This document shows, piece by piece, positions 6,761 to 28,698 of a DNA stretch of 36,843 nt. Within the stretch, counting starts at the first letter, position 1; each line of letters begins with the position of its first letter. Source of the DNA: an uncultured Bacteroidales bacterium (lineage in GTDB: Bacteria > Bacteroidota > Bacteroidia > Bacteroidales > UBA12077); the NCBI GenBank assembly GCA_964345495.1, contig CAYFRV010000003.1:1-36843 (forward strand), read 5' to 3'. Under the pieces are notes generated by a model. It was not told the origin of the DNA. It did no database searches and was given only the letters and a program-made list of their open reading frames with translations. The translations under genes were made by a program, and so were the position numbers.

Positions 6761-8179
6761 TTAAAATCTACGGTATCCGCCTCCTTTCTTTTTCCCGGCA
6801 TTTTCAACAATTTTTTGCGAAAGTTGCTGATGCTTTTTTATGAGCGCGTTCTCATCGATATGATCTACAGTACCGTTACGAACTATAATTCTGCCGTTAA
6901 CAATTACATAATCAAATGGTTCCATAGCAACAGAGAATACCAGTGCAGCAAGCGGATCATGCAAGGCTCCGGAAAACTCAACCCGATCCATAGAGATTAG
7001 ATTCAGATCTGCTTGCTTTCCTTCTTTAATCTGACCGATATCCGAACGATTTAACACATCGCTTCCACCCCTTGTAGCCATATAAAAAACATCCTCAGCA
7101 GTCAGCCACTTTTCCTGTTCGCGAAGACGTGAAAGAAGCATAGCGTTACGTAGCTCCATCAGCATGTTAGAAGAATCGTTAGATGCTGAACCGTCAACCC
7201 CTAAACTAACTTTTACACCGGCCTGCAATAATTCTTTAATTTTTGCAATACCTGAACCCAACCGCATATTTGAAGTAGGACAGTGAGTAATCCCCATTTT
7301 AGACTTACCCGCTAGTTCAATTTCTTCCTCACTCAAATGAATTGAATGTGCAAACCATGCATTTTCTCTAATCCAACCGAGAGACTGAAGATAAGCGAAG
7401 GGTCGCATGCCATATTTTTCAATACAAAACTCCTGCTCATCAAGAGTTTCTGCAAGGTGAGTATGAATCTGCAAATTATACTCCTTCCCCATTTCAACTG
7501 TTTGCTTCATTAACTCGGGGGTTACGGAGAAAGGAGAACAGGGGCCCAGCGCAATACTTGTCATGGCACCCGGAGCCTCATCGTGGTATTTATTTATAAG
7601 ACGAACCGTATCTTCTTTTATGGCTTCTTCCGATTGTATGACGTCATCCGGGGGTAATCCACCATCCGATTTTCCCAATGACATCGAACCACGAGTGGGC
7701 TGAAACCTCATTCCCAGTTCCTGGGCTGCTTTAATCTCTGCATCTATCAATTTGCCGGAAGTAGAGGAAGGAAACAGGTAGTGATGATCAGAAGTAGTGG
7801 TACAACCGGATTTTAACAATTCCATCATGGCAAGTTTTGCTGCGTTATAAACTGCTTCTTCGGAAATTTCCCGCCAGATTTCATAATGTGTGATTAACCA
7901 CTGAAATAAGCCCTCATTCTGAACATTAAAAATATTCCGTGTCAAAGTCTGGTAAAAATGATGATGTGTATTGACAAAACCGGGAACAACCACCATTCGG
8001 CTGGCATCTATCTCCTCATCTGCTTTTCCGGTATAAGTTTCAGGTCCGGCAGAGCGGATAATCCCATCTTCAATATATATATGTCCGCCTTCGAAAGCAT
8101 TCACAAAATCACCGGTACCATATTCACCATCCATACGGGCACAAAGCATCGGGTTCTTAATTAAAATTGATTTGCTCAT
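6761..8179 (-). CDS. Amidohydrolase-superfamily deaminase, 8-oxoguanine/guanine deaminase-like (COG0402 chlorohydrolase group)
   Basis: VVVPGFVNTHHHFYQTLTRN is the signature of the 8-oxoguanine deaminase / isoxanthopterin deaminase subgroup. HTHLAE and GVDGSASND metal and catalytic motifs are present. I prefer the ATG at 8179 (MSKSILIKNP) to the TTG at 8224 used in the ORF track. Confidence 0.75.
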   Translation of the reverse strand: MSKSILIKNPMLCARMDGEYGTGDFVNAFEGGHIYIEDGIIRSAGPETYTGKADEEIDASRMVVVPGFVNTHHHFYQTLTRNIFNVQNEGLFQWLITHYEIWREISEEAVYNAAKLAMMELLKSGCTTTSDHHYLFPSSTSGKLIDAEIKAAQELGMRFQPTRGSMSLGKSDGGLPPDDVIQSEEAIKEDTVRLINKYHDEAPGAMTSIALGPCSPFSVTPELMKQTVEMGKEYNLQIHTHLAETLDEQEFCIEKYGMRPFAYLQSLGWIRENAWFAHSIHLSEEEIELAGKSKMGITHCPTSNMRLGSGIAKIKELLQAGVKVSLGVDGSASNDSSNMLMELRNAMLLSRLREQEKWLTAEDVFYMATRGGSDVLNRSDIGQIKEGKQADLNLISMDRVEFSGALHDPLAALVFSVAMEPFDYVIVNGRIIVRNGTVDHIDENALIKKHQQLSQKIVENAGKKKGGGYRRF

Positions 8180-8219
8180 GATTTTTGGAGTATAGTTTTT
8201 ATAATTCCTTTGAATTACT

Positions 8220-8258
8220 CGCAACGACCGCAGCGAAAGCTCGCAGCGAACGCAACGA
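8220..8258. repeat. GC-rich array of four CGCARCGA octamers in an operon-internal spacer
   Basis: The units are CGCAACGA (8220), CGCAGCGA (8229), CGCAGCGA (8242) and CGCAACGA (8251), spaced 9/13/9 bp apart. They sit in the 105-bp gap between two minus-strand genes. Confidence 0.6.
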
Positions 8259-8284
8259 AAAAATAATGTACTTCTAATCTTTCT

Positions 8285-9739
8285 TTACTTTATCAAAGCA
8301 TTGAATTCATTGATCACTTTATCTATTTCAGGAACCATCTTGTGAATTTCTGCCCAGTAATCCCGATAATTATACCACTGATCATTCAGATCTTTCAATT
8401 CGCGCCCTTGTTGTTCAATCCAGGTATAATACTTCAGGTTATGCACCCGCTTTCTTTCGTAGTGACTCAATTCCAATGTATTATCAATGCCCAGGTTCAT
8501 TAAATGATCGTAATCTTTTGCTGCTTCTTCGCGATTATAAGGGCCATGTTCTTTATGCATTTCCTCCATCCGGGAATCATATAACTCCATAGAATCGGTA
8601 AAAACAGTCAACACAACATCTTCCTTTGTAAGCTCATAGTATTTTGCATATTTTATAGCAGACAAAACATTACCTATGGAAGAGATACCCATTAAATCAA
8701 GCTGATCAATAAGTTTTTGATCAATGCCCTGTTCAGCCAGATATTCTCTGCCTTTCTCTTCGTTAAACAAACGAGTTGTCCGCATAGTTGATTCATCGTC
8801 GACGGCTACAACCATATCCGTATTTCTAACGTTGTGAATCCAGGGTACATGTTTATCACCAATACCTTCAATACGATGCCCGCCAAATCCATTTTGCAAT
8901 AAGGTAGGGCATTGCAGAGCTTCACCTACAGCAATTTTTGAACCGGGGTACTTTTCTTTCAGGAAATCTCCTGTGCCAAGTGTTCCGGCAGAACCTGAAG
9001 TTAAGACAACTCCTGAGTAGTTATCGCGTGCGCCCATCTCCTTTTGCAGCACTTCCATCATTGCATTACCAGTAACATCATAATGCCACAAATGATTGCC
9101 AAACTCATCAAATTGGTTAAAGATCATCACGTCATCACGCGTTTCCCTTAACTCCCAGCATTTGTCAAAAATTTCTTTCACATTGCTTTCACAACCCGGG
9201 GTAGGTATTACTTCCCCAGCCACTTTTGCAAGCCAGTCGAAACGCTCTTTTGACATACCTTCCGGTAGTATAGCAATCGATTCGCAGGCAAGTAAAGCTG
9301 CATCATAAGCTCCTCCCCGACAATAATTGCCGGTGGAAGGCCAAACAGCTTTATGTTGCTTAGGATTAAACTGTCCGGTGATCAAACGCGGAACGAGGCA
9401 TCCAAAAGTCGCCCCAACTTTGTGGGCTCCGGTTGGGAACCATTTTCCGACAAGAGCTATAATTCGCGCATCCACTCCTGTAATTTCGGACGGGAGTTCA
9501 ATATAATTTACCCCGGAATAACCTCCTCCGCTTTGTACAGGTTCATTTTTCCAGGTTATTCTGAATAAATTACGCGGATGAATATCCCACAGGCCAATTC
9601 CTTCCAACTCTTTTTTAATATCATCCGGAATCAGAGAAGGATTTTTCATCTGCTCAAATGTGGGGATGATAATATCACGTTCCCTGCAAATTTCTGCATT
9701 ATTCTTTTGTGTTTCTTTATCTACCGTTAAATCAATCAT
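8285..9739 (-). CDS. Fold-type-II PLP-dependent enzyme (TrpB-like lyase/thiolase family), specificity unknown
   Basis: 484 aa ORF. FPTGAHKVGATF resembles the TrpB-type PLP-lysine motif (TGAHK). A glycine-rich phosphate loop is present (LTSGSAGTLGTG). A ~100 aa helical C-terminal extension is absent from cysteine synthases. Confidence 0.6.
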   Translation of the reverse strand: MIDLTVDKETQKNNAEICRERDIIIPTFEQMKNPSLIPDDIKKELEGIGLWDIHPRNLFRITWKNEPVQSGGGYSGVNYIELPSEITGVDARIIALVGKWFPTGAHKVGATFGCLVPRLITGQFNPKQHKAVWPSTGNYCRGGAYDAALLACESIAILPEGMSKERFDWLAKVAGEVIPTPGCESNVKEIFDKCWELRETRDDVMIFNQFDEFGNHLWHYDVTGNAMMEVLQKEMGARDNYSGVVLTSGSAGTLGTGDFLKEKYPGSKIAVGEALQCPTLLQNGFGGHRIEGIGDKHVPWIHNVRNTDMVVAVDDESTMRTTRLFNEEKGREYLAEQGIDQKLIDQLDLMGISSIGNVLSAIKYAKYYELTKEDVVLTVFTDSMELYDSRMEEMHKEHGPYNREEAAKDYDHLMNLGIDNTLELSHYERKRVHNLKYYTWIEQQGRELKDLNDQWYNYRDYWAEIHKMVPEIDKVINEFNALIK

Positions 9740-9766
9740 ATTTTTCTTTTGTTTTATTATGTATTA

Positions 9767-10597
9767 TCAATCTTTTTTAAGGTGCTTGTTCTTTTTATCT
9801 TTTAAATGAAAAGCCTCTTTCTGATAGCGTATTGTCTGTATTTCAGCGGCAATAGATAATGCAATTTCCCATGGATTATCGGTGCCTCCGATATCTAAAC
9901 CCACAGGGCAGTAAAGGTTTGACAGATCAGGATTTTCTTCCACTTCTTCCTTCAGGCTTTCAATTAACTCCGCACGAGTATTTGTTGAAGCGACAATGCC
10001 AATATATGGAGTCTGAATGTTTAACTTAAAAATCTTATTTAAAATTGTGCTGTCGTGCTTATGTTGATATGTGGCCAGTAAGAAATAAGGATGTTTGCTA
10101 AAACCGGTTTCGTCCATATAACGACTGAAACCGGAGTATACCTTTTCACCTTCCTGAGTTAATGCATCAATCATCTCCTTGCGGTCATCAATTATTGTTA
10201 CGTTTAAATCAAGCTTTGCCAGCAATTCAAAAAGTGCCTTGCCGATGTGTCCGGCGCCGAAAATGTAAACTTTTTTCTGTTGTATAAGAGCCTCAAAAAA
10301 TAACGTTGCCTTTCCGCCGCAAGCCATCCCGGTTTTTCTTCCTTCACCCTTCTCCTTTGATAAGTTAAATTGCTCGAGGGCATTTGTTCCGGTTTCTAAG
10401 ACCTCTTCGGCTTTTTTCACAGCAAGATATTCCAGATTTCCGCCACCCACTGTACCTGTAGAAGATCCATCTTCATAGAAAAGCATTTTATTGCCTGCCA
10501 AAGCAGGGCCTTCTCCCTCTTTTTTTACAACGGTTATCAAAACTCCATTGTGACCGTTACGTCTCAACTCCCATATCTTTTTATAAATATCTTCCAT
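9767..10597 (-). CDS. xdhC: XdhC/CoxI-family molybdenum hydroxylase maturation factor
   Basis: 276 aa ORF. The N-terminus has the XdhC_CoxI pattern (GVLITVVKKEGEGPALAGNKMLF...GTVGGGNLE). The C-terminus has a Rossmann motif (VYIFGAGHIGKAL). Confidence 0.8.
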   Translation of the reverse strand: MEDIYKKIWELRRNGHNGVLITVVKKEGEGPALAGNKMLFYEDGSSTGTVGGGNLEYLAVKKAEEVLETGTNALEQFNLSKEKGEGRKTGMACGGKATLFFEALIQQKKVYIFGAGHIGKALFELLAKLDLNVTIIDDRKEMIDALTQEGEKVYSGFSRYMDETGFSKHPYFLLATYQHKHDSTILNKIFKLNIQTPYIGIVASTNTRAELIESLKEEVEENPDLSNLYCPVGLDIGGTDNPWEIALSIAAEIQTIRYQKEAFHLKDKKNKHLKKD

Positions 10598-10614: not shown

Positions 10615-11373
10615 TTATTCAACTAATTTGCTCCTCTTAGTAAATTCTGCATTACTTTTATTATCAGCCAGCCAGGTAACAAATTTTTTTCCTTTCAGGT
10701 ATTTTACAGGCACAGCTTCCATTACATGTCGTTTCAAAAGCTCATAGTCCTTTATAAGCGTTCCGCAAACGGCATTAATCCCATACTCAAATAAAGCAGG
10801 AGATAATGGAGTAGAAGGTCCCATTACAATCTTGTAAGCATCATCGCGTACATATTGCATGATCTCATCGAATGTATGATTTATCAAAGAAGTTCCCGTA
10901 ATAACAGCTACATCAGCTTCCGGCATATAAGTTTTTATATCTTCTTCTGTAAGATCTCCATTTAACGGGGCCTTTTCAAAAACAAGCAATTTTTCTACTC
11001 CTTCCAGGTTATCCAGAAAAGGGAAATGGCCAACCACACCAACGCTTTTATCTTTACCTTTTTCATAGATAAGTTCCTGGGCTTTGAGCCGTTGATAAGG
11101 CCGGTCAAAAACAGACATCCATGCATTAATTGCTGCCATTCCGATAGAAGCCTTTAAAGTATATTCCGAATAAATAAATTCCGCCAGCTGACGCAAAGAA
11201 AGACTCCTGAAATTCCCTGCCTCTGTAATATGTTCGTGTGGACTGCTGCCTTTCAGCGTACTTGCAATACCTTCCGCTTCGCCTGCTTTTACTAATGTTG
11301 AAAAAGCACCCACAACCACCTCATCAACAGTGATTTCAGGTATGTCTTGTATAAATTTATCTAAAATTTGCAT
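10615..11373 (-). CDS. DUF4213/DUF364 (putative heavy-metal chelation, Rossmann-like) protein
   Basis: 252 aa ORF. The pattern SIGMAAINAW ... VGVVGHFPFLDNL ... ADVAVITGTSLINHTFDEIM ... VMGPSTPLSP matches what I recall of DUF364-family proteins. Confidence 0.65.
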   Translation of the reverse strand: MQILDKFIQDIPEITVDEVVVGAFSTLVKAGEAEGIASTLKGSSPHEHITEAGNFRSLSLRQLAEFIYSEYTLKASIGMAAINAWMSVFDRPYQRLKAQELIYEKGKDKSVGVVGHFPFLDNLEGVEKLLVFEKAPLNGDLTEEDIKTYMPEADVAVITGTSLINHTFDEIMQYVRDDAYKIVMGPSTPLSPALFEYGINAVCGTLIKDYELLKRHVMEAVPVKYLKGKKFVTWLADNKSNAEFTKRSKLVE

Positions 11374-11464: not shown

Positions 11465-12328
11465 TTATTTCAACTGTCCACCCTCTATAATTTTTTCTTC
11501 AATGAATGCCTGTATCATATCCAGACTAACAGTTTTTCTGTATTCTTTCGAAGAACGGGCATCGTTAATAGGCTGAATATACTTTTCATAACCCATCCGT
11601 ATTTCAGGAAGAATTTCCTCAATCTCTTTTTTTGATAAACCTTTCAATCGATTCTCCAGCTCTTTCCGTCTGACTATTGTCGGAGCCACAGCGCCCAGGC
11701 AAATACGGATGTCACTAAGATTGCCATCTGTAAATGATGCCATACCTGCAAAAGCGATTTTCGACAAAGCCATAGCTTTTCGCGTTCCCACTTTTCGGTA
11801 ATATTCCACATCAAAATTTTCCAACGGAATGCGGATTTCAACCAGCAATTCGTCAGATTTTCTACAGGTCTGCCCGGGGCCGGTTACAAAATTATCAATT
11901 GGCATTTCTCTGACATTATCAGCGCTTTGCAAAATAATTGATGCATCGGCTGCATATAAAAACGGAAGTGTATCAGCAGCGGGCGAAGCATTGCTTATGT
12001 TTCCACCAATCGTTGCAACATTGCGGGTAGTTACAGCTGCCATTTGTCTTGCTGTATCACTAAGTACATCCGGAATTCTTTTATCTTCAATCAAATCCCT
12101 CAGCAAAACACCAGAGCCAATTATAAGCTGTTTCGAATTAATTTCAATACGTTTCAGCGGGTCAATTTTGTTAAGAAAAAGCAAAGGGTTTTCAAACTGT
12201 GGTGAAATTCCTCCTTCTCTCCGATATTGCACCATCAAATCGGTTCCTCCGGCTATGGGAATAACCTTATTGGCTGTCATAATTTCCAGTGCTTCCTCTA
12301 ATGTTTGTGGAATAAAACCGTTGCTCAT
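11465..12328 (-). CDS. Molybdenum hydroxylase FAD-binding (medium) subunit, set 2
   Basis: 287 aa ORF with IPIAGGTDLMVQ and ATIGGNISNASPAADT FAD-binding motifs. It has a CO-dehydrogenase flavoprotein C-terminal domain. Its start overlaps the stop of the upstream Fe-S subunit gene (ATGA, 12325-12328). Confidence 0.85.
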   Translation of the reverse strand: MSNGFIPQTLEEALEIMTANKVIPIAGGTDLMVQYRREGGISPQFENPLLFLNKIDPLKRIEINSKQLIIGSGVLLRDLIEDKRIPDVLSDTARQMAAVTTRNVATIGGNISNASPAADTLPFLYAADASIILQSADNVREMPIDNFVTGPGQTCRKSDELLVEIRIPLENFDVEYYRKVGTRKAMALSKIAFAGMASFTDGNLSDIRICLGAVAPTIVRRKELENRLKGLSKKEIEEILPEIRMGYEKYIQPINDARSSKEYRKTVSLDMIQAFIEEKIIEGGQLK

Positions 12329-12792
12329 TTTTCCTCCCTTTTTTGAACTGCCAACCTGATTCCTTCAATTATCATGTTATAACCTGTACAACGGCAAAGA
12401 TTGCCGGTTATGGAATTTCTGATTTCTTCAGTGTCCGGACTTTTGTTCTCTCTAAGTAAAGCTTCTGTAGAAATAACCATACCGGGAGTACAAAAGCCAC
12501 ATTGCACGGCTCCGGATTTTTTAAAAGCTTCCTCTATGATTTTAAAATTATCGCTTTCACGAATCCCTTCTAATGTTTCTACAGAATGTCCATCGACATT
12601 ACCTACAGGCAAGATGCAAGATGTAACCACCTTTCCGTCAACCAAAACAGCGCAAGCACCACATTCTCCTTCACCACAACCTTCTTTTAAACTTCTTAGG
12701 CCAAACTCATCTCTCAGAACATCTAACAATCGATATTCTGGTGGCACATCCACCTTTACAACCCGGTTATTTAATGTAAATTCAATCTTCAT
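12325..12792 (-). CDS. Molybdenum hydroxylase [2Fe-2S] small subunit, set 2
   Basis: 155 aa ORF with CGEGECGACAVLVDGKVVTSC, CGFCTPGM and CRCTGY cluster motifs. Confidence 0.9.
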   Translation of the reverse strand: MKIEFTLNNRVVKVDVPPEYRLLDVLRDEFGLRSLKEGCGEGECGACAVLVDGKVVTSCILPVGNVDGHSVETLEGIRESDNFKIIEEAFKKSGAVQCGFCTPGMVISTEALLRENKSPDTEEIRNSITGNLCRCTGYNMIIEGIRLAVQKREEK

Positions 12793-14881
12793 TGTTTCTG
12801 TCTTTTAAATATTCTGGTGTCATTGGTATCTGGCCGACTTTCACCCCTAATGCTTGCTCCGTGGCTTCTGCCAGGGCAGGTGCCACACCGCTTAAAGGTA
12901 ATTCTCCGGCACATTTAGCTCCAAAAGGCCCGAATTCGTATGGATTCTCTACAAAATCACATTCAATTTCGGGTATATCAACGGAAGTGGGAATAGTATA
13001 ATCCGTAAGATTAAGCTGATCAAGTTTGCCCTTCCCGTGGGTCAATTTTTCAAGATAGGCATAACCAAGCCCCTGTATCATACCGCCATGTATTTGCCCC
13101 TTTATAATGTCTTCGTCCAGGGCTACTCCGATATCGTATACAGCCCATATTTTTTCCACTTTGAGCTCACATGTAACCGGATCAACTTCCACTTCTGCCA
13201 CATTAGCTCCCCATGAATAAACAGGATAAGCATCGCCCTGAAATTTGTCATTATCCCAGCTCACATAATCCGGATGTTTATATACCTCTTTCACTTCTGT
13301 TTCTTCTTCGTTCCATTTTTCCAATAGCCTATTACAAGCTTTTCTGACAAGCCCCCCGATAATCATAGCAGTTCGCGAAGCGGCAGTAGGGCCTGAATCA
13401 GGAACCCTATCCGTATCCTGAGTGACAAATTCTACATCGGCCTCAGGTATAGAAAGACTGTAAGCCACTATTTTTATAAGAGTGGTTAATGCTCCCTGTC
13501 CCATTTCAACGTTAGAAGTATAAATACCTACTTTATTTCCTTTCTTTTTCAAATAAACCTCTGCGTTTATATTAACTTCGCCTTTTCCGGTAAAACCACA
13601 GCCATGAAGGAAAAAGGAAATCCCCAACCCTTTATTTTTTCCCGGATCAGATTTTTTCCGCTCATAACCTGACATTGCATTGATCTTATCCAATACTTCC
13701 CGAATTTTAACATCCGACCACATCTTGCCACCTGTTGAAGTGGTATCTCCCTTTTTCAGAAAATAGTGCTTTTTAAAATCCAGAGATGGCTTTCCAACTT
13801 CATGAGCTACACGATTCATAAGCTGCTCTATTCCAAAAAGCACCTGCGGAGAACCAAATCCCCGAAAAGCGCCGGAAGGTACAGTATGGGTTTTAACAAC
13901 TCTTCCTCTCACTTGCAGATTTGGAAAAGCATAAACTCCTGTAGCTGTAAAAATACCACGTTGGAGCACTACAGGAGAGATCGTAGCATAAGCACCTCCA
14001 TCAAACGAAACATCGATGTCAAGTGCGGTAATTTCATTTTTTTCATTTAAAGCTACACGGTATTTCAGTGTTGATGGATGCCGTTTAGTTGTGGCTTCAA
14101 TATCTTCCTTTCTGTCAAGAATAAGCCTGACAGTTTTATTGGTTTTCAGCGCTGCAGTTGCTGCCTGTGCAGCCAACAGGGAAGGATATTCCTCCTTTCC
14201 GCCAAATGCCCCGCCGGTAACAGTTTGAATGATCTGTATTTTGTCTTCAGGAAACCCTGTAGCTTCAATTATCGCATTTTTAACAAAATAGGGGCATTGA
14301 ACAGATCCGTAAATAATAATTCTACCTTCATGATATTTAGCAACCACGCCATTGGTTTCCAGGTAAAGGTGTTCAGGACGGCCTGTATGGTATTCATCCT
14401 CAATAATTTTTGATGCATTAGCGAAAGCTTTATCAGGATCGCCTTTCGAATAATCATACTCTACATGAATCTCCTTTTTTCGTTCCGCTTCTTCAATGGA
14501 TGTAACCGGTGATAAATCGCTGTACTCAATCTCTACTTGTGATGCCAGTTCGGCAGTTTTTTCTTTAGAGGGGCCAACAATAAGCAAAATAGGCTGGCCG
14601 ATGTAATGCACTTCATCTTCAGCAAAAACAGGATGATCGGACACCACTGTCTGCATCCTGTTATTTCCCTGAATATCATCCTTATTGATTATTTCGTAGC
14701 CTTTTGGCAGTTCAGGCAAATGTATGGCTTCTATTTTTGCATAAGCTTTGCTGCTGCGCACGGTTCGGGCATGCACATAGTTTTCCAGGTTCATATCTGC
14801 AATATACTCTGCCTGCCCGGAAATTTTCTTTTCCGAATCCAATCTTGGTATGGAATCACTTATTGATTTATTCATCATCAT
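12782..14881 (-). CDS. Molybdopterin-binding large subunit of a xanthine dehydrogenase-family hydroxylase, set 2
   Basis: 699 aa ORF with GGAFGGKEE, AFRGFGSPQ and FGAKCAGELP motifs characteristic of the aldehyde oxidase/xanthine dehydrogenase family. It overlaps the Fe-S gene by 11 nt. Confidence 0.9.
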   Translation of the reverse strand: MMMNKSISDSIPRLDSEKKISGQAEYIADMNLENYVHARTVRSSKAYAKIEAIHLPELPKGYEIINKDDIQGNNRMQTVVSDHPVFAEDEVHYIGQPILLIVGPSKEKTAELASQVEIEYSDLSPVTSIEEAERKKEIHVEYDYSKGDPDKAFANASKIIEDEYHTGRPEHLYLETNGVVAKYHEGRIIIYGSVQCPYFVKNAIIEATGFPEDKIQIIQTVTGGAFGGKEEYPSLLAAQAATAALKTNKTVRLILDRKEDIEATTKRHPSTLKYRVALNEKNEITALDIDVSFDGGAYATISPVVLQRGIFTATGVYAFPNLQVRGRVVKTHTVPSGAFRGFGSPQVLFGIEQLMNRVAHEVGKPSLDFKKHYFLKKGDTTSTGGKMWSDVKIREVLDKINAMSGYERKKSDPGKNKGLGISFFLHGCGFTGKGEVNINAEVYLKKKGNKVGIYTSNVEMGQGALTTLIKIVAYSLSIPEADVEFVTQDTDRVPDSGPTAASRTAMIIGGLVRKACNRLLEKWNEEETEVKEVYKHPDYVSWDNDKFQGDAYPVYSWGANVAEVEVDPVTCELKVEKIWAVYDIGVALDEDIIKGQIHGGMIQGLGYAYLEKLTHGKGKLDQLNLTDYTIPTSVDIPEIECDFVENPYEFGPFGAKCAGELPLSGVAPALAEATEQALGVKVGQIPMTPEYLKDRNNED

Positions 14882-14883
14882 TA

Positions 14884-15453
14884 TTACTTTTCAAAAAACC
14901 TCTTCTTAATATACTCATAATCTTTATCCGTGTCAATATCCAGCAAAACCCCTTCATCATCAACTTCAACAATATTAGCTTCAAGGCTATGAATAAAATC
15001 CCTGAGAATACCATCTTCCGGCATTTCAAGAATCCCCTCACGGCAATCATTGCGAAACAATACAGGATGTCCTTTCTTTCCTTTGAAGGAAGGATTAACA
15101 ATATCCCCCTCAGTTTCCAGAAGCTTTGTCAGGGTTTGCCTTTTAATCATTGGCTGGTCGCCGGGGAGGACAAAAAACGTATCAGAACTCAATTCTTTTA
15201 CTCCACATTGCACAGAAGAAAACATCCCCTTGCGGAAATCCGTATTTTCAATTATTCTGACACCCTTGTGACTCTGCAGTATCTGTTCACATTCTTGTGC
15301 TTTATGGCCTGCAACAACAATCACATTATCACACACATCCAATAGTGTATCTGCTGTATGTTCTATTACAGACTTTTCACCAAGAGGCAAAGTCATTTTA
15401 TAGCGACTTGTCCGTGAAGACAAACCCGCTGCAAGAACTATGGCTTCAATCAT
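14884..15453 (-). CDS. mocA: Molybdenum cofactor cytidylyltransferase (MocA/YgfJ family)
   Basis: 189 aa ORF. The N-terminus AIVLAAGLSSRTSRYKMTLPLGEKSVIEH is the NTP_transf_3 signature. The stop lies 2 nt before the start of the Mo subunit gene. Confidence 0.8.
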   Translation of the reverse strand: MIEAIVLAAGLSSRTSRYKMTLPLGEKSVIEHTADTLLDVCDNVIVVAGHKAQECEQILQSHKGVRIIENTDFRKGMFSSVQCGVKELSSDTFFVLPGDQPMIKRQTLTKLLETEGDIVNPSFKGKKGHPVLFRNDCREGILEMPEDGILRDFIHSLEANIVEVDDEGVLLDIDTDKDYEYIKKRFFEK

Positions 15454-16627: not shown

Positions 16628-16663
16628 AATATTAAATTTTTACTTTTTAGTCTAAGCATAATT

Positions 16664-16749
16664 ACCTGTAAATACTAATTGATTTTCTTCATTTGCCCCC
16701 ATGCCTTAAAGAGTGCAAAGAAAATCAATTAGTTCCTGAATTTACAGGT
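16664..16749. other. Long imperfect palindrome / RNA hairpin in the only large intra-cluster spacer
   Basis: ACCTGTAAAT..CTAATTGATTTTCTT..TTTGC pairs with GCAAA..AAGAAAATCAATTAG..ATTTACAGGT in 10 + 15 + 5 bp arms. There is a 7-nt bulge (TTCCTGA) and an 18-nt loop. Confidence 0.6.
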
Positions 16750-16819
16750 TTAAAAGGACATATCATTTTTATTTTCTCATTAATATTATTTTGGTAAACA
16801 GACGGATACCTTATTTTTC

Positions 16820-22330: not shown

Positions 22331-23606
22331 AAAACCTCCCCTGTAATTTTTTTGCTGCTTTCTTTAATTCTTTTTTTATTTCATCTTCATCCACAGTTTG
22401 TATCTTACCGTCTTTATAAATTATCTCTCCACCTGAAATGGTCATGTGGGTTTTCTGGGCTCCAAAGCCAAGTATAAGATGAAAGAAAAGATTGTCAATA
22501 TTTATGGGTGTTTCAGGCACATAATCCAATACAGCCAAATCGGCAGAACGGCCTAGCTGAAGGCCACCGCTTTGCGGAAAAACTGAATTAATTGCTTCTT
22601 CAGAACGCCGGAATAATTTATCCTGCGGATTTTCAACAGCGCCATTTCTCCTCAGAAAATGAGAGCGGTAGCTGCCTATAATATTTCCTGACATTCCATC
22701 TGTGCCAATGATGTAATCCCTGATCTTTTCGGTATCCATCATTCCCACATTATTATTGGCATTTGACTCAGGATTGGAAACTACCACCGGTTTATATTCA
22801 TTGATTAACCGTGCATCATTTTCAGAAATATGAACACAATGTATCAAAAGAGAAGAGTTCGATAATAAATTAAATTGATTTAGTCTGTCGATCGGGCCAT
22901 CAAACCCTTCATCCAAACAGAAATCTAAATCTTCCCTTCCTTCACCACAGTGAATATGAATCGGCATCTTATTCGGTTTGTTATGGCTGATAGCCTTAAG
23001 CGACTCACCACTTAATGTGAAGTTGGCATGTAACCCCATCATTCCTTTTGTATTAGGGGAATCAATGTGTTCATTATAGAATTTAAGATTTTCATCCAAC
23101 TGCTGCCGGAATACATCTTCTCCTTCTCTGTCTGAAATCTCAAAAGAAAGAGCACTTTTTAAACCAACTTCGTTAAAAGCTTTCTCAATCAAATTAAGGC
23201 TTCCTGTCACATAGTTGGAGGATGCATGATGGTCAAAAATGGTAGTCACTCCGTATTTTGCCGAATCAATAACACCGGAAAGCGCAGAATAATATATTGT
23301 TTCCTCATCCAAAACCCGGTCAAGCGGCCACCAAAGATTTTTAAGGATATTAGAAAGCTTATCAGTTGGTCCAAGGGGAACGATTCCAACGGCAAAACGC
23401 GAATACAAATGATGATGCGGATTTAATAAACCCGGAATAATTACCCGGCCACCAGCATCAAAATATTCATCATTTTTATTTTCCATTTTATCAATATTCC
23501 CAAGATCGGCAATCTTACCATTTTCAATCCTGACAAAACCCTTGTCGTATATAACTGAATATCCATCGGTTACAACTGCATTTCCTATTGTATAATTCGC
23601 TGACAT
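22323..23606 (-). CDS. ssnA: SsnA-family aminohydrolase
   Basis: 427 aa ORF. LLNPHHHLYS and LKNLWWPLDRVLDEETIYYSAL...IFDHHAS closely parallel E. coli SsnA. It overlaps ygfK by 8 nt. Confidence 0.85.
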   Translation of the reverse strand: MSANYTIGNAVVTDGYSVIYDKGFVRIENGKIADLGNIDKMENKNDEYFDAGGRVIIPGLLNPHHHLYSRFAVGIVPLGPTDKLSNILKNLWWPLDRVLDEETIYYSALSGVIDSAKYGVTTIFDHHASSNYVTGSLNLIEKAFNEVGLKSALSFEISDREGEDVFRQQLDENLKFYNEHIDSPNTKGMMGLHANFTLSGESLKAISHNKPNKMPIHIHCGEGREDLDFCLDEGFDGPIDRLNQFNLLSNSSLLIHCVHISENDARLINEYKPVVVSNPESNANNNVGMMDTEKIRDYIIGTDGMSGNIIGSYRSHFLRRNGAVENPQDKLFRRSEEAINSVFPQSGGLQLGRSADLAVLDYVPETPINIDNLFFHLILGFGAQKTHMTISGGEIIYKDGKIQTVDEDEIKKELKKAAKKLQGRFYE

Positions 23607-23665
23607 ATTATTTAAATTTTTCTTTCATTAGTGTATATCACCTGTAGATTTTGTTATTGTCAAAA

Positions 23666-23699
23666 TATAAAAAGCCCCTGCAATTTGATTAATCCGGGG
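23666..23699 (-). terminator. Weak candidate intrinsic terminator/attenuator between the cyclic amidohydrolase gene and ssnA
   Basis: The minus strand reads CCCCGG-ATTAATCAAATTG-CAGGGG followed by CTTTTTATATTTTG. The stem is short (4 GC pairs plus 1), so the call is tentative. Confidence 0.25.
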
Positions 23700-23719
23700 T
23701 TAAAATATAGCTTCGTAAT

Positions 23720-25084
23720 TTAAAAGGGAAAATAATTATTTCGTCCGATCATCTTTCCATACCCTGGTTCAGTGACAATTCCTTTATCTGCATCATAAAT
23801 CACCCTGCCTCTCAAAATTGTATTTTTGATACGTCCTTCCCACTCCATACCTTCAAAAGGAGTAATTTTGCCTTTAGAATAAAAGTCTTTTCCGCGCACC
23901 GTCCATTTGGCATCGGGATCAATTATGACAAGATCAGCATCTTTTCCAATGGTAATTGATCCTTTTCTTTCGTAGAACCCATATTTGCGGGCAGCATTTT
24001 CCGACACAAGCTTAAGAAAACGGCTGAGGGTCAATCTCTGCATAGCAAAGCCCTCGGAAAATAAAAAAGGAAGGAGTGTTGGATTGCCTGGTATTCCGGA
24101 GTAATCTGTCCACACCGAACCTGTTTGCTTTTGTTCGGCAGGTGCAGGGGCATGATCAGAGGCTATAAAATCTATTCCGCCCTTACGCAGAAATTTCCAC
24201 AATTCACTTTTATTTTCTTCCGACTTCACAACAGGTGCAGTTTTAAGGGCACTGCCATATTTCTTAAAATCATCTTTAGAAAAAGCCAGATAATGCGGGC
24301 AAGTTTCAGCGGTAACATATTTAAAATCTTTCAATAATTCTACCGCTTGTGCTGTTCCAACATGGACGATGTGTAAATTCGCCCCAACTTCTTTAGCGAT
24401 ACTCAAAGCCTCCTGCACAGCAAGTATTTCAGCAATTTCAGGACGGGAACGATAATAATTCTCCCATTTTTCACCTTTAGTCTTTTCAAACTGCGTTGCT
24501 TCATTAACAAACTCAGCGTCTTCGGCATGAAGGAGTACAGGAATGTTAAGTTCTTTTGCTTTCTGAAGCACATTCATAAACTGGTAGCGCGAAAGGCTTC
24601 TAAAGCTATCCATTCCAGAGAGAAAATAAGTTTTAAAACCCATTACGGTATTGGAAAGTTCCTCCATTTGGTCTGCATAGCCTTCCTGATAGGATTGTGA
24701 AGAAACTCCACCAAAAAATCCATAATCAACAATTGCCTTACTTTCAATCTGCTTGTGCTTTTCTTTCAAATTTTTCATGTTGGTTACCGGCGGCACAGAA
24801 GTACATGGCATATCGATCACGGTAGTTATACCACCTGATGCGGCGGCTGAACTTCCATGCAGAAAATCCTCCCTTTCTGTAAAGCCCGGATCATCAAAAT
24901 GGACATGTGGATCTATACCCCCGGGAATAACCATACAACCCGAAGCGTCAATAACATTTTCACCCTCCAGATTGCTGCCCAAAGCTGTGATTACACCATT
25001 CCGGGTTTCAATATCAAGAGATTTCGTTTGATCTTCCCCGGATAAAGCCACTTTTCCATTCTTAATAACCAACTTATCACTCAT
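23720..25084 (-). CDS. Cyclic amidohydrolase, allantoinase (AllB)-like rather than HyuA-like
   Basis: 454 aa ORF with GGIDPHVHFDDPGFTEREDF...GGITTVIDMP, ETCPHYL and ASDHAP. The C-terminal GKDADLVIIDP...ILRGRVIY follows the pattern of E. coli allantoinase. It overlaps the Mo subunit gene by 8 nt. Confidence 0.8.
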   Translation of the reverse strand: MSDKLVIKNGKVALSGEDQTKSLDIETRNGVITALGSNLEGENVIDASGCMVIPGGIDPHVHFDDPGFTEREDFLHGSSAAASGGITTVIDMPCTSVPPVTNMKNLKEKHKQIESKAIVDYGFFGGVSSQSYQEGYADQMEELSNTVMGFKTYFLSGMDSFRSLSRYQFMNVLQKAKELNIPVLLHAEDAEFVNEATQFEKTKGEKWENYYRSRPEIAEILAVQEALSIAKEVGANLHIVHVGTAQAVELLKDFKYVTAETCPHYLAFSKDDFKKYGSALKTAPVVKSEENKSELWKFLRKGGIDFIASDHAPAPAEQKQTGSVWTDYSGIPGNPTLLPFLFSEGFAMQRLTLSRFLKLVSENAARKYGFYERKGSITIGKDADLVIIDPDAKWTVRGKDFYSKGKITPFEGMEWEGRIKNTILRGRVIYDADKGIVTEPGYGKMIGRNNYFPF

Positions 25085-27392
25085 GGTTCAATTCCTTATA
25101 AATTTTTTCCGGTGTGAAAGGTGTTTCACGCAATCTAATTCCTACAGCATCATATATCGCATTAGCTATTGCTGGTGCCGGGCAATTTATACCAATTTCT
25201 CCAACAGATTTGGCACCAAAGGGGCCGGTTTTTTCTTCCGAATCAACTAGTAGGGTCTCCATTTCAGGGATATCATTACTTCGCCATATCTTATAATCCC
25301 AGAAAGAAGCATTAGTCATATTCCCCCCGGAAGTGAAATGGAAATTTTCAAACAATGCATAGGTCATTCCGTTAATTGCTGCACCTTCGACTTGTCCTTC
25401 AGCAAGTTTTGGATTAATCGCCTGACCACAATCTACGACAGAAACAAATTTTATCACATTCACTTTCCCGGTTTGTTTATCAACCTCTACTTCAGCAAAT
25501 TGTGCAATAAAAGGAGGAGGTGACTGGTCAACAAAACTGGAAGCTTCTGCCTGAATTTGCGAAAGCTGTCCGCCGTAAAGAGTTTCATTGGCAATTTCTT
25601 CAAAAGAACATTCTTTCTTGGTATCCGAATCGATTACTTTGCCATTCTCCAGGTTTAGTTTATCGGATTTTGCGTCCAGGATATTAGTTGCTGCACCCAG
25701 AATTTGTTCCTTTATTTTTGTTGCACATTTTTCAACTGCAGTTCCCGATACATAGGTGGTTGATGAAGCATAAGCCCCCACGTCAAAAGGAGTTCGGTCG
25801 GTATCAGAAGAAAGGACTATAATTTTTTCGGTGTCTACCTGTAACACTTCTGCTGCAATTTGTGCAAGAATCGTATCGGAACCGGTTCCGATATCAGTAG
25901 CTCCTATATCCAGATTAAAACTACCATCTTCATTCATTTTCATATATGCAGCACCAAGGTCGATCATCGGAATGCCTGAACCCTGCATTGCTACAGCAAC
26001 GCCCAAACCACGAACAAAGCCCGGTTTAGGTTCAGTCTTTTTTCCTCGCTTTTGATACCAGTCAATCATCCTGGCTCCGCGGTCAATGCATTCGTCAAGT
26101 TTGCAAGAATTAATAATTTGTTCCACGCCTTCTTTTCCTTCGCCAAGCGCCTTAAAGACATCAGAAGTTTCTCCTTCTTTTATGTGCCATTTCTTTATAA
26201 ATTCAAGGATATCCTGATTAGTCTTTCTTGCTATGATATCGATTTGTTGGTTCAGTGCAAAATAAGCCTGGGTAGCCCCATAACCACGGTAAGCTCCGCC
26301 CACAGGTAAATTTGTGTATGCAGACCTTGCCCGGAAATAAATATTCTTTATCTTATTAAATAACGGTAAACATTTTGATCCTGAATTGGAAGAAACAGTA
26401 AGCGCATGGCTGCCATAAGCTCCGGTATTCATAATATTATCCATGCTTAACGCAGTAATTTCACCATCTTTTTTAAACCCGGTTTTTAATTTTACCTGCA
26501 TCGGGTGGCGCTGGCGGCCGGACTGAAATTCTTCCTGGCGCGTATAAATCAGCCTTACCGGCCGTTTAGTTCGCAAAGTAAGTAGTGCTACATAAGGTTC
26601 AAGCAACACCTCCTGTTTGGCTCCAAACCCTCCGCCGATGCGGGGTTTTATTATGCGAATTTTCCTCAATGGATAATTAAGCACACGGGCAACTATGCGC
26701 CGGGCATGGAAAGGAACCTGTGTAGCTGTTACAATTACTAAGCGGCCGTTTTCATCAAAATAAGCCGCTGCAATATGTGGTTCCATTGTAGCATGCGAAG
26801 CGTAAGCACTTTGATAAGTCTCCTCTACCACATAATCTGCTTCTTCAAATCCTTTATCAACTTCTCCAACAGAGAAATCCACCTCTGAAGCCAGGTTTTC
26901 TTCAGGTTTATAAGGAACAGGTATCGGAAAATATTCTTCTTTATCATGTATTGCTATCGAACCCTTCAAAGCTTTCTCCGGATCAAAAACCGCATCCAGC
27001 AATTCATATTCCACTTTGATTTTTTTAACCGCTTCTTCAGCTATCTCCATAGTTTCAGCAGCCACCATTGCAACAAAATCTCCGGCGTATCTAACAACAT
27101 CATCAAATAATAATGTATCATAGGGAGATGGTTCAGGTGCACCCTGTCCAGCTGTAGTATAATAAATTTTATCTATATCCTTGTGTGAAATTATATCTAC
27201 TACGCCATCCATTTCCTTCGCTTCAGTGACATCAATCATTTTTATACGGGCATGCGCATGAGGGCTTCTAAGTATCCGAACCTTCAAATAATCATCAAGG
27301 CGATAATCTTCTGTAAACAAAGAACTGCCCGTTGCAAGTGCCATTGCATCTGTTTTTTCAACAGATTGGCCTATATTACGATATTTCTTCAT
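25077..27392 (-). CDS. Molybdopterin-binding large subunit of a xanthine dehydrogenase-family hydroxylase, set 1
   Basis: 771 aa ORF with GGGFGAKQE, GGAYRGYGATQ and FGAKSVGEIG motifs. It overlaps the Fe-S gene by 17 nt. Confidence 0.9.
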   Translation of the reverse strand: MKKYRNIGQSVEKTDAMALATGSSLFTEDYRLDDYLKVRILRSPHAHARIKMIDVTEAKEMDGVVDIISHKDIDKIYYTTAGQGAPEPSPYDTLLFDDVVRYAGDFVAMVAAETMEIAEEAVKKIKVEYELLDAVFDPEKALKGSIAIHDKEEYFPIPVPYKPEENLASEVDFSVGEVDKGFEEADYVVEETYQSAYASHATMEPHIAAAYFDENGRLVIVTATQVPFHARRIVARVLNYPLRKIRIIKPRIGGGFGAKQEVLLEPYVALLTLRTKRPVRLIYTRQEEFQSGRQRHPMQVKLKTGFKKDGEITALSMDNIMNTGAYGSHALTVSSNSGSKCLPLFNKIKNIYFRARSAYTNLPVGGAYRGYGATQAYFALNQQIDIIARKTNQDILEFIKKWHIKEGETSDVFKALGEGKEGVEQIINSCKLDECIDRGARMIDWYQKRGKKTEPKPGFVRGLGVAVAMQGSGIPMIDLGAAYMKMNEDGSFNLDIGATDIGTGSDTILAQIAAEVLQVDTEKIIVLSSDTDRTPFDVGAYASSTTYVSGTAVEKCATKIKEQILGAATNILDAKSDKLNLENGKVIDSDTKKECSFEEIANETLYGGQLSQIQAEASSFVDQSPPPFIAQFAEVEVDKQTGKVNVIKFVSVVDCGQAINPKLAEGQVEGAAINGMTYALFENFHFTSGGNMTNASFWDYKIWRSNDIPEMETLLVDSEEKTGPFGAKSVGEIGINCPAPAIANAIYDAVGIRLRETPFTPEKIYKELNHE

Positions 27393-27852
27393 AATCTTTC
27401 ATTTTTTGTGCGGCTAATTTAACCGCATCAATTATTTTAATATATCCCGTGCATCGACAAAGTACACCTTCCATTCCCGCTTCTATTTCTTCATCTGTCG
27501 GGTTGGAATTATTCTGTAATAAATAATAGGCAGACAAAACCATTGCAGGGGTACAAAAACCACATTGCACGGCTCCAGTTTCAACAAACGCCTTTTGAAT
27601 AACGTGAGGATGATGGATATCGCCTATTCCCTTTACCGTGGTTATTTTTTGCCCAATAACGGCAGCGGTGAACACACGACATGAATTTACAGGTTTTCCA
27701 TTCAGGAGTACCATGCAGGATCCGCACTCTCCTTCATCACATCCGCGCTTTACTTCACTATAACCATGATTTCTAAGGGTATCCAAGAGATATTCCTCTT
27801 CCCCATGAACCATCCGTTTTTCTTTGTTATTGATATAATAAATATTTTCCAT
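27376..27852 (-). CDS. Molybdenum hydroxylase [2Fe-2S] small subunit, set 1
   Basis: 158 aa ORF with CDEGECGSCMVLLNGKPVNSC, CGFCTPAM and CRCTGY. Confidence 0.9.
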   Translation of the reverse strand: MENIYYINNKEKRMVHGEEEYLLDTLRNHGYSEVKRGCDEGECGSCMVLLNGKPVNSCRVFTAAVIGQKITTVKGIGDIHHPHVIQKAFVETGAVQCGFCTPAMVLSAYYLLQNNSNPTDEEIEAGMEGVLCRCTGYIKIIDAVKLAAQKMKDYEEIS

Positions 27853-27855
27853 TAG

Positions 27856-28665
27856 TTATGACTTCAAAAGTTCAATTAATCCTCTTTCAATCTGATTTTC
27901 AGCGATATGTTTAACATAATCTGATGACATACCTTTTGCCGAAACAAATTTGATATCTAATCCTTTTGCAATATCTTTTAAATCCAATTTTTCAATATTT
28001 TTTCCCCTGATCTGATCTTCGATTTCAAAGAGCCTCCTAAATCTTTCCGTATGTCCGGTTAGAACAATTGCAATATCTTCAATTTCGTTTTTCTCACGCT
28101 TAGCCAAAATTGTAATTGTAAAACCAGGATGATCGTTCTTAGTAACTCCTTCCCTGTAATACCATGAATACCAGGAAATATAGGGAATAATGACTTCTGT
28201 AATTAATGTTTGGGATTTCAACTTCTTTTGGGTAAGATAATCTTTTACCGGATATATTCCTGATGTAGCGCCTTCTAATTTAACATCAGCCTCCAAAGCA
28301 ATTAGCGGACCAATTAAGTCGGACCAATTTGGCGCCAAACGGAGACTTCCTCCAATTGTAATTCTGTTTCGTAAAGGTATGGTTGCAGCTTGCCGTAATG
28401 ATTTAGACAGAATATGCCCGGGCTCTATCTCATTCAGGCGTTCAACAACAGAATTAAAATCCGCCAGACTACCAATATTTATGAATCCTTCCTCTTTTTT
28501 AACATAATTTAGCGGAAGCTTATCCAGAAAAACGATGCGATTTCCGTCTTTAAGCTTTATTCCGGTTAGATGAGTTCCCCCACCATGGAGAACAGCTTTT
28601 TCATCTTTTATTAAATCAAGAGCTTCTTCAATATGGTTAGGGTATTCCCATTTAATATTTTTCAT
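27856..28665 (-). CDS. Molybdenum hydroxylase FAD-binding subunit, set 1 (YgfM-like position)
   Basis: AVLHGGGTHL and ITIGGSLR are FAD-binding-5 motifs. I prefer the ATG at 28665 (MKNIKWEYPN) to the TTG at 28698 in the ORF track. This is the first gene of the cluster. Confidence 0.75.
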   Translation of the reverse strand: MKNIKWEYPNHIEEALDLIKDEKAVLHGGGTHLTGIKLKDGNRIVFLDKLPLNYVKKEEGFINIGSLADFNSVVERLNEIEPGHILSKSLRQAATIPLRNRITIGGSLRLAPNWSDLIGPLIALEADVKLEGATSGIYPVKDYLTQKKLKSQTLITEVIIPYISWYSWYYREGVTKNDHPGFTITILAKREKNEIEDIAIVLTGHTERFRRLFEIEDQIRGKNIEKLDLKDIAKGLDIKFVSAKGMSSDYVKHIAENQIERGLIELLKS

Positions 28666-28698
28666 TGACTTAGGGGTGTATTTAATATTTAGAACCAA

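Follow-up and report, generated by a model that had tools for sequence, protein, structure and literature searches.

The subject of this work is a 36,843-nt stretch of DNA (contig CAYFRV010000003.1, assembly GCA_964345495.1; the whole stretch is called the window below) from an uncultured Bacteroidales bacterium, in which 17 co-directional open reading frames (ORFs) of the minus strand tile positions 6761–28698 (about 22 kb). We suggest, with a probability of roughly 80%, that this locus is one operon for anoxic purine catabolism by a variant of the 2,8-dioxopurine (reductive urate) pathway. Compared with the known pathway, at least three enzymes have non-orthologous substitutes, and two further conserved genes are present. 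The proposal is built on the gene families, on diagnostic residues, on a gene order that is conserved and on co-occurrence; from these we infer the substrates, the order of the steps and the roles of g09, g14, g16 and g17 (the genes are designated g01 to g17).

The reductive urate route encoded by clusters of E. coli and Clostridium was worked out in 2025 by in vitro reconstitution (PMC12507026) and by genetics and biochemistry (bioRxiv 10.1101/2025.04.24.650524). According to both studies, XdhD (DOPDH) converts urate to 2,8-dioxopurine, YgfK (DOPOR) dearomatises the product, SsnA opens the ring to give ureidomethyl-hydantoin, and HyuA converts the latter to 2,3-diureidopropionate. YgeW (with carbamate kinase) and YgeY then strip the two ureido groups, and YgeX converts 2,3-diaminopropionate to pyruvate, while a separate xanthine dehydrogenase (XDH) feeds xanthine and hypoxanthine into urate (PMC12507026; bioRxiv 10.1101/2025.04.24.650524). 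The original prediction, made for this DNA from the sequence alone, had described such clusters as genetically tied to urate consumption, which is outdated since the biochemical reconstitution. Owing to that reconstitution, most genes of the present cluster can be assigned to steps.

In the pathway that we propose, a molybdenum (Mo) enzyme b (g11–g13), possibly together with the deaminase g17, would produce urate from xanthine, hypoxanthine or guanine. Mo enzyme a (g01–g03) would then take the C6 oxygen off urate to yield 2,8-dioxopurine, whose ring would be reduced by YgfK (g06) and opened by the SsnA-like g05 to ureidomethyl-hydantoin. In the place of HyuA, g04 is predicted to open the hydantoin to 2,3-diureidopropionate. 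One ureido group would be phosphorolysed by g08 to carbamoyl phosphate and the other hydrolysed by YgeY (g07), leaving 2,3-diaminopropionate. In the place of YgeX, the ThrC-like g09 may deaminate this compound to pyruvate, either jointly with the CysK-like g16 or alongside it. Both Mo enzymes would be matured by MocA (g10), XdhC (g15) and the DUF364 protein (g14).

The arrangement of these genes, close spacing included, is conserved. Using YgeY for a scan, the same gene order was found in five contigs of metagenome-assembled genomes from Bacteroidales/Bacteroidota, with protein identities of 48–97%; the scan also returned Spirochaete and Riflebacteria loci. On a 505-kb scaffold the order is the same and the cluster lies beside the same DAHP synthase gene. 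In the Marinimicrobia assembly GCA_016934035.1 the order of the 17 genes is fully kept, and two small ORFs are added, with identities of 41–71% (BLAST, from YgeY onwards) and the remainder of the order established by Pfam content. A 2.3-Mb contig shows the same order by Pfam over the stretch examined, which begins with the first gene for an FAD subunit and extends to the second Fe-S gene. Furthermore, parts of the cluster were seen in Spirochaetota, Halanaerobiales and Riflebacteria as well as in many metagenome contigs. Such an arrangement is far beyond chance. The co-localization that the original prediction had proposed to look for in relatives was thus observed in six Bacteroidales/Bacteroidota contigs, in Marinimicrobia and in the 2.3-Mb contig, and, together with the family models, it bears out the description of the locus as a complete-looking, rearranged SsnA/YgfK/YgeY/Mo-hydroxylase purine-urate neighbourhood. 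Calling it a Bacteroidota variant was right as to the background of the window but too narrow, given the same order in Marinimicrobia and the parts found in other phyla.

Enzymes assigned to the pathway

Gene families were called with profile hidden Markov models (HMMs) of Pfam and NCBIfam at curated cut-offs, and the annotated locus proteins of E. coli K-12 were compared with the window by tblastn (E ≤ 1e-3). The best window match of E. coli XdhD, YgfK, SsnA, YgeY and MocA was in each case its counterpart (39.5%, 35%, 31%, 48% and 28% identity, respectively), and these matches are reciprocal. The profiles confirmed the earlier assignments of YgfK, YgeY, two FAD/2Fe-2S/Mo heterotrimers, a MocA-like protein, XdhC, a cyclic amidohydrolase and a purine-type deaminase, and they gave names to three genes left unnamed before, namely the ThrC-like g09, the DUF364/DUF4213 gene g14 and the CysK-like g16.

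Mo enzyme a is encoded by the first three genes. The YgfM-like FAD-binding subunit g01 (27856–28698; g01 to g17 are all on the minus strand) is 280 aa long with a TTG start, matches PF00941 (3.5e-22), is 26% identical to E. coli YgfM and opens the operon in every relative. It is followed by the 2Fe-2S subunit g02 (27376–27852; PF01799 and PF00111), which overlaps the next gene by 17 nt, and by the molybdopterin subunit g03 (25077–27392) of the XdhD/DOPDH type. The latter is closer to E. coli XdhD (540 bits) than to XdhA (33%, 417 bits). In an alignment of four Mo subunits, g03 ('ALGEGK') and XdhD ('AIGE606GK') have in common an 11-residue insertion with a Glu residue, which XdhA and g11 do not have. 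The insertion is present in 6/6 g03 orthologues (L001–L003, L016, L100 and L101) and in an XdhD-type protein of locus L045, and is missing from all 30 other aligned Mo subunits, g11-type proteins among them. Glu606 of XdhD was proposed to orient urate (Li et al. 2025, PMC12507026). Because the XdhD-specific, Glu-bearing insertion is kept, Mo enzyme a is likely a reductase of urate to 2,8-dioxopurine. It should be added that the XdhD-type protein of L045, besides the Glu-bearing insertion, has Gln in the motif 'AYQGYG', as in E. coli XdhD, where g03-type proteins have Arg; two subtypes of the urate-reducing enzyme may exist.

Mo enzyme b includes the molybdopterin subunit g11 (12782–14881), the 2Fe-2S subunit g12 (12325–12792; PF01799 and PF00111; 44% identity to the Fe-S subunit XdhC of E. 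coli) and the FAD subunit g13 (11465–12328; PF00941 and PF03450; 30% identical to E. coli XdhB). The best NCBIfam models for g11 were xanthine_xdhB, pucD and Se_dep_XDH, all below cut-off; both Mo subunits (g03 and g11) score below the curated family cut-offs. The residue pattern of g11 is that of a canonical XDH ('FGGKEE', 'AFRGFG' and 'AGEL') and is kept in g11-type proteins ('FGGKE', 'AFRGFG' and 'AGEL'); we take these positions to correspond to the Glu and Arg that bind the substrate in bovine XDH and to its catalytic Glu. The enzyme g11–g13 thus appears to be a conventional XDH, which would hydroxylate (hypo)xanthine, or guanine at C8, and feed urate into the route.

A second putative feeder step yielding urate is the 8-oxoguanine-deaminase-family amidohydrolase g17 (6761–8224), with a score of 597.5 against the NF006055 cut-off of 532. 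The model alignment begins at residue 18, and the public gene call has 472 aa against 487 aa in the ORF; the true start is probably 15 codons downstream of the ORF start. This gene directly follows g16 in the Bacteroidales, Marinimicrobia and Salinispira loci.

The gene g06 (19082–22330) encodes YgfK, the Fe-S flavoenzyme expected to dearomatise 2,8-dioxopurine. Its TIGR03315 score is 867 (cut-off 835), and the identity to E. coli YgfK extends over 1034 aa. With an 8-nt overlap, ygfK is coupled to g05 (22323–23606), a divergent SsnA-like amidohydrolase that presumably opens the reduced 2,8-dioxopurine ring. SsnA is by far its best family (NF005540, 384 with a cut-off of 444; TIGR03314, 349 with a cut-off of 455), the next non-SsnA family reaching 132 bits, and the match to E. 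coli SsnA is reciprocal. In a neighbour-joining tree, g05 falls on the SsnA side, apart from GuaD and the 8-oxoguanine-deaminase clade, and its clade is sister to canonical SsnA. The earlier call of an SsnA homologue therefore stands as to the family, with the reservation that the protein lies below both cut-offs in a divergent sister clade. The NCBI name of its relatives is just 'amidohydrolase family protein', and surveys by SsnA name or family signature could overlook proteins of this type.

Hydantoin opening is assigned to g04 (23720–25084), an allantoinase/dihydroorotase-like cyclic amidohydrolase that narrowly passes the allantoinase model TIGR03178 (373, cut-off 358) and has an identity of just 28% to E. 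coli HyuA. A homologue with 45% identity was found in the Spirochaete cluster L007, which is HyuA-less and otherwise canonical. Judging from the structures, allantoin is 5-ureidohydantoin, and the intermediate 5-ureidomethyl-hydantoin has one methylene more. Due to this likeness, an allantoinase-like enzyme would be a chemically close substitute, and g04 may act as a ureidomethyl-hydantoin hydrolase in HyuA's stead.

The two ureido groups are proposed to be removed by the products of adjacent genes. YgeY (g07, 17867–19054), an M20 hydrolase, scores 493 with NF009555 (cut-off 321); public gene calls give 371 or 393 aa, and the ORF has 395 aa. The second protein, g08 (16820–17812), is a short YgeW-related carbamoyltransferase of 330 aa compared with about 396 aa in YgeW, to which it is 33% identical. 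It fails the YgeW models NF005538 and TIGR03316 (182 and 174 bits; cut-offs 453 and 500) and narrowly misses the ornithine carbamoyltransferase (OTC) model (266, cut-off 281). The carbamoyl-phosphate motifs STRTR and HPLQ are intact, KNWGGFG replaces the D-x-x-x-SMG of OTC, and HALP replaces HCLP. Based on these motifs (KNWGGFG and HALP) and the operon context, an arginine-pathway OTC was rejected. In a neighbour-joining tree of carbamoyltransferases, the g08 clade is sister to YgeW; K-[NS]-W is common to both, and g08 lacks a YgeW insertion of about 20 aa. The protein is thus related to YgeW, as had been predicted, without being a member of that family. As for clade placement in general, YgfK and YgeY fall inside their families by cut-off, whereas g05 and g08 belong to sister clades. 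A g08 homologue (45% identity) occurs in the Riflebacteria locus L008 with a carbamate kinase gene directly after it, and many metagenome relatives also adjoin carbamate kinase. Phosphorolysis of a ureido group to carbamoyl phosphate is the role that this context suggests for g08.

Several other carbamoyltransferases were observed in the loci surveyed. Two further clades, 'KAW...HCLPA' (~345 aa) and 'RNW...[HQ]xMPV' (~341 aa), form tandem pairs beside carbamate kinase and a HyuA-like gene, often with no YgeY in reach (L026, L028, L041, L045, L054, L056, L059 and L081). In these loci, phosphorolysis may serve to remove both ureido groups, which would be another form of the pathway. A fourth clade, 'EPVVQ...HSLP' (~317 aa; L023, L030, L040 and L051), stands apart from the OTC and YgeW-related groups in a PyrB-rooted tree and may be the 'pseudo-ATCase'/ureidoglycine carbamoyltransferase group of PMC4016543.

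Three genes are assigned to the maturation of the Mo enzymes. The MocA-like molybdenum cofactor cytidylyltransferase g10 (14884–15453; PF12804) scores 158 with TIGR03310, below the cut-off of 186. The XdhC-type Mo-enzyme maturation chaperone g15 (9767–10597; PF13478 and PF02625) scores 144 with TIGR02964 (cut-off 162), and its cross-match to E. coli YqeB amounts to just 23%. Between the Mo enzyme b genes and g15 lies g14 (10615–11373), a DUF364/DUF4213 protein with PF04016 (2.9e-33) and PF13938 domains and no NCBIfam match. A structure paper on DUF364 linked the family to pterin and metal handling (PMC2954201). In nine loci (L001, L003, L005, L010, L011, L015, L018, L021 and L022) the DUF364 gene adjoins XdhC, and in L016 it occurs without XdhC. 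From this context, g14 would be an accessory protein of molybdenum cofactor maturation. The DUF364, XdhC and MocA genes occupy the place of E. coli YqeB/YqeC. In the Marinimicrobia locus L011, the maturation block contains two extra small genes (7247–7870 and 9504–9986), which encode a 207-aa protein without Pfam match and, immediately ahead of the CysK-like gene, a 160-aa NTPase_1 protein; an NTPase_1 gene of this type recurs in four loci.

The two pyridoxal phosphate-dependent enzymes

The end of the proposed pathway involves two pyridoxal 5′-phosphate (PLP) enzymes of family PF00291, whose names in public records are 'threonine synthase' (g09) and 'cysteine synthase' (g16). Both names are probably wrong. 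The ThrC-like g09 (15446–16627) has an N-terminal Cys4 ribbon, overlaps mocA by 8 nt and passes the broad TIGR00260 model alone (190, cut-off 167). It departs from three aligned threonine synthase structures at three motifs on which these structures all agree: STGNT to STGNA, NP[HY]R to NPLT and GNAGN to GDAVV. The corresponding stretches read NPLTIEGKKT and PTGDAVV, against NP[HY]R[IL]EGQKT and PVGNAGN in threonine synthases, and the same changes are found across 30 family members. In structures of the T. thermophilus threonine synthase, these motifs are reportedly tied to phosphate binding. A housekeeping threonine synthase was rejected on account of the changed motifs and the conserved operon position.

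The CysK/CBS-like g16 (8285–9739) has 484 aa and scores far under the cut-offs of the CysK and CBS models. No other protein of the cluster is as conserved, with 71% identity to the Marinimicrobia copy compared with 41–69% for its neighbours. An alignment of 12 sequences (A1), including WOR-3, Marinimicrobia, Halanaerobiales, Spirochaeta and Hydrothermota, gave a mean column identity of 79%. The family comprises at least 8000 clusters at 90% identity among the matches listed, is 65–75% identical across phyla and has no functional name. Extra N- and C-terminal segments lie outside the CysK/CBS-aligned core (approximately residues 83–391). An AlphaFold2 model (mean pLDDT 74) was used for a fold search, which returned generic CBS and CysK folds alone (20–27% identity) and no pointer to a substrate. 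We propose that this enzyme catalyses a beta-elimination or a beta-replacement as a terminal step of the pathway.

The distribution of the two genes gives some indication of their roles. In the Salinispira locus L006, where SsnA and YgfK are about 50% identical to the E. coli proteins, both the ThrC-like and the CysK-like genes are present and no YgeX was found within the 21 kb examined. The Spirochaetaceae locus L007 has YgeX, YgeW and the CysK-like gene, with no ThrC-like gene within the 18 kb examined. This pattern, seen in a few loci, suggests that the ThrC-like protein is the YgeX analogue and that the CysK-like protein does something additional. A scan anchored on g16 gave 80 metagenome loci, none of which has YgeX (0/80). 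In 29 of them, at least 3 kb are available on both sides of the CysK-like gene; here, a pathway gene was found in 26/29 loci, a ThrC-like gene in 23/29 and a g08-type carbamoyltransferase in 17/29, while YgeX and canonical YgeW were each found in 0/29. The view that other genes of the cluster may replace missing functions is well served by this pair, which likely stands in for YgeX.

It is conceivable, although we hold this only tentatively, that the g09 and g16 families form an unrecognised and very widespread terminal module of anaerobic purine breakdown, which replaces or extends YgeX with new chemistry and is mislabelled in databases in both parts. Among the possibilities are the separate handling of D- and L-diaminopropionate or albizziin, and the direct elimination of urea from a 3-ureido amino acid.

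Other surroundings of these genes were also noted. In about 19 metagenome loci (e.g., L088, 3270–3836, and L053, 4400–5338), the CysK-like gene lies among apparent housekeeping genes, whose products include a ~189-aa protein without Pfam match and, judged by eye, a family-2 glycosyltransferase and dihydropteroate synthase; often just ThrC-like or HyuA-like genes are nearby. The CysK-like family may thus occur outside purine operons too. Near the CysK-like/ThrC-like pair, genes for an ABC transporter ATPase, permease and substrate-binding protein were found in 17, 11 and 6 loci, respectively (e.g., L035, L058 and L065). By eye, they resemble a BMP-family nucleoside-type transporter.

Missing functions, rival readings and operon boundaries

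In the window, yqeA, ygeX, yqeB, yqeC, ygeV and three permeases gave no tblastn match beyond two cross-matches, of YqeB with the XdhC-domain gene and a 46-residue match to a PLP enzyme. By Pfam, no ORF of at least 100 aa in the window has a SelD, permease or regulator domain. The absences listed in the original prediction (YqeA, YgeX, SelD, YqeB/YqeC, a permease and a regulator) consequently hold for the window. Transporter and regulator genes were likewise found in no copy of the 17-gene form examined at locus level.

A number of points weigh against the reductive urate pathway as the function of this operon. The assignments for this type of cluster are drawn by homology from enzymes assayed elsewhere, and YgfK and SsnA homologues are just 31–35% identical to the characterised E. 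coli enzymes, with the SsnA and MocA homologues below the curated cut-offs. In the motif 'AYRGYG', the g03-type proteins keep an Arg that is Gln in E. coli XdhD ('AYQGYG'). The SsnA and carbamoyltransferase trees are neighbour-joining trees without support values. Carbamate kinase is present in no copy of the 17-gene form among the loci examined, so that a gain of ATP from the carbamoyltransferase step would be hypothetical here. Moreover, the CysK-like gene stands beside canonical YgeX in L007 and occurs in several loci without a recognisable pathway gene within 10 kb; therefore it is not a simple replacement of YgeX and may have a wider role. A plain YgeX replacement was accordingly rejected for g16, L007 carrying both genes. 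Finally, human-gut Bacteroidetes isolates, which are different organisms, did not consume urate in two screens: a screen by the authors of Liu et al. described urate use as 'notably absent in Bacteroidetes', and Kasahara et al. found no growth on urate for six Bacteroides strains.

In view of the low identities and sub-cut-off scores, the same enzyme logic could be directed at a related but different N-heterocycle, such as another oxopurine, a pterin or a modified base. Agreeing with this are the separate clade of the SsnA-like protein, the departure of g03 from XdhD at the Arg/Gln position and the use of other families in the place of HyuA, YgeW and YgeX. We nevertheless consider it improbable: the XdhD-specific insertion and its Glu are conserved in g03, urate-making enzymes (a canonical-looking XDH and an 8-oxoguanine-type deaminase) are located in the same operon, and in other phyla (L006, L019 and L045) the variant lower genes are combined with upper enzymes 41–62% identical to those of E. 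coli.

An anaerobic allantoin-type route (like that of AllB, AllC and an oxamate or ureidoglycine carbamoyltransferase), with the Mo enzymes merely supplying urate, is suggested by the allantoinase score of g04 and by the occurrence of M20 hydrolases and carbamoyltransferases in allantoin routes, for which the ureidoglycine carbamoyltransferase is a precedent (PMC4016543). This reading is very unlikely, since the window encodes no uricase or other route from urate to allantoin and, by profile HMMs, the operon has no ureidoglycolate- or oxamate-handling genes. In addition, g07 scores as YgeY, well over the cut-off (493 bits), and YgfK and SsnA, which would have no role in allantoin breakdown, are translationally coupled in the operon.

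Least credible of all is a function in selenate reduction or 'selenium metabolism'. Older names of YgfK, SsnA and XdhD/YgfM point that way, two of which are still in use in NCBIfam (TIGR03315, 'putative selenate reductase subunit YgfK'; TIGR03314, 'putative selenium metabolism protein SsnA'), and so does the link of these families to SelD reported by Haft and Self (PMC2276186). Against it, direct assays in both 2025 studies place the YgfK, SsnA and XdhD families in urate breakdown, and SelD, YqeB and YqeC were found neither in the window nor in any cluster copy examined at locus level.

The layout of the genes is in line with a single operon. Six stop/start overlaps are present, at 12325/12328 (4 nt), 12782/12792 (11 nt), 15446/15453 (8 nt), 22323/22330 (8 nt), 25077/25084 (8 nt) and 27376/27392 (17 nt). 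The ORF listing gives the same figures for the gene number, extent and 4–17-nt overlaps as originally reported; the claim of a single spacer longer than 110 bp was nearly right, as two were found (113 nt at 23607–23719 and 192 nt at 16628–16819). All others are at most 105 nt, with lengths measured from the most-upstream start codons. The longest spacer (16628–16819), between the carbamoyltransferase g08 and the ThrC-like g09, is AT-rich and could be the site of an internal promoter. Its counterpart in L005 is 216 nt, and in L010 a PDDEXK_3 gene is inserted in the neighbouring spacer between YgeY and the carbamoyltransferase. Promoter and terminator scans of the operon gave counts equal to the shuffle expectation, with a tool that has no Bacteroidota promoter model. 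A search with Rfam covered the whole window, 192-nt spacer and 291-nt leader included, and returned neither a Moco or purine riboswitch nor any other match.

The boundaries of the cluster had been placed correctly, the flanks being ordinary Bacteroidota housekeeping genes. Directly upstream, on the same strand (28990–35354), are TonB-like, ExbD, ExbB and TamB genes. Downstream are a GNAT gene (on the opposite strand) and genes for DAHP synthase/chorismate mutase, a PorV-like protein and glutaminyl cyclase. The GC content is uniform over the whole window.

Significance and comparison with known systems

The reductive urate pathway established in 2025 in E. coli and clostridia appears here in an alternative build in uncultured Bacteroidales, Marinimicrobia and other anaerobes. 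Li et al. did not list Bacteroidota among the phyla with SsnA, for which IPR017700/TIGR03314 served as the marker (PMC12507026). Such a survey would probably miss the SsnA-like protein g05, because it is below both NCBIfam SsnA cut-offs, TIGR03314 included. In the neighbourhood colouring of the same work, any PF00291 protein is 'YgeX' and any PF00185 protein is 'YgeW' (PMC12507026), and counting in this way would hide the substitutions described above. Liu et al. found the pathway enriched in Bacillota in a survey by BLASTp with C. sporogenes proteins (bioRxiv 10.1101/2025.04.24.650524). Since the surveys were keyed on the SsnA signature or on these BLASTp queries, the environmental and taxonomic reach of the pathway is probably underestimated.

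The limited set of literature and supplements searched yielded no account of the variant, the two PLP families or the Bacteroidota/Marinimicrobia copies. To that extent, Bacteroidales have not previously been reported to have the pathway, and it is the variant that is new, the pathway itself being known. The main interest lies in the unexplained PLP pair and in the wider distribution of the known pathway. The cluster offers several candidate enzymes: two strongly conserved PLP enzymes annotated as biosynthetic, a short YgeW-like carbamoyltransferase, an allantoinase-like hydantoinase and, further, a DUF364 protein putatively tied to Mo-enzyme maturation. A commentary (PMC12990295) lists as unresolved in which order the ureido groups are cleaved and which stereochemistry the intermediates have, and the variant enzymes provide a second system for both questions.

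Like the E. coli cluster (PMC12507026), the present one includes an XdhD-type Mo enzyme with the Glu insertion, YgfK, an SsnA-type hydrolase, YgeY and MocA, as well as a second, XDH-type enzyme with a purine deaminase nearby. The differences are considerable. Mo enzyme a consists of three separate subunits, whereas E. coli has an Fe-S/Mo fusion; the SsnA-type protein is of a sister clade; an allantoinase-like protein stands for HyuA and a short sister-clade carbamoyltransferase for YgeW; YgeX is absent, with two other PLP enzymes present; YqeA, YqeB, YqeC, YgeV and the permeases are lacking; DUF364 and XdhC are added; and all genes form a single co-directional operon.

The two PLP enzymes are similar to ThrC and CysK/CBS in the fold-type II PLP fold, the Schiff-base lysine and the carboxylate-binding S-T-G-N loop. 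Unlike ThrC, g09 is without the three motifs invariant in threonine synthases and has a Cys4 ribbon, and, unlike CysK/CBS, g16 is located in catabolic operons.

A further parallel for g08 is a catabolic enzyme, the ureidoglycine carbamoyltransferase of Rubrobacter xylanophilus (Barba et al. 2013, PMC4016543). Paired with carbamate kinase, it acts in purine breakdown, where it cleaves a ureido intermediate by phosphorolysis. The Rubrobacter enzyme belongs to the pseudo-ATCase clade and its substrate is allantoate, whereas g08 is nearer to YgeW.

Clostridial clusters (C. sporogenes and C. difficile) show the same principle of filling pathway steps with non-orthologous enzymes, namely UacX for YgfK and UacY for YgeW and YqeA (PMC12507026). 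The ThrC-like, CysK-like, short carbamoyltransferase and allantoinase-like fills are not among the replacements in the 2025 papers and supplements, as far as these could be searched. The clostridial enzymes are SelD-dependent, in strains with YqeB/YqeC (bioRxiv 10.1101/2025.04.24.650524), while none of these was seen in the present cluster. The clostridial clusters and the cluster described here are alike in having separate XDH and DOPDH enzymes (bioRxiv 10.1101/2025.04.24.650524).

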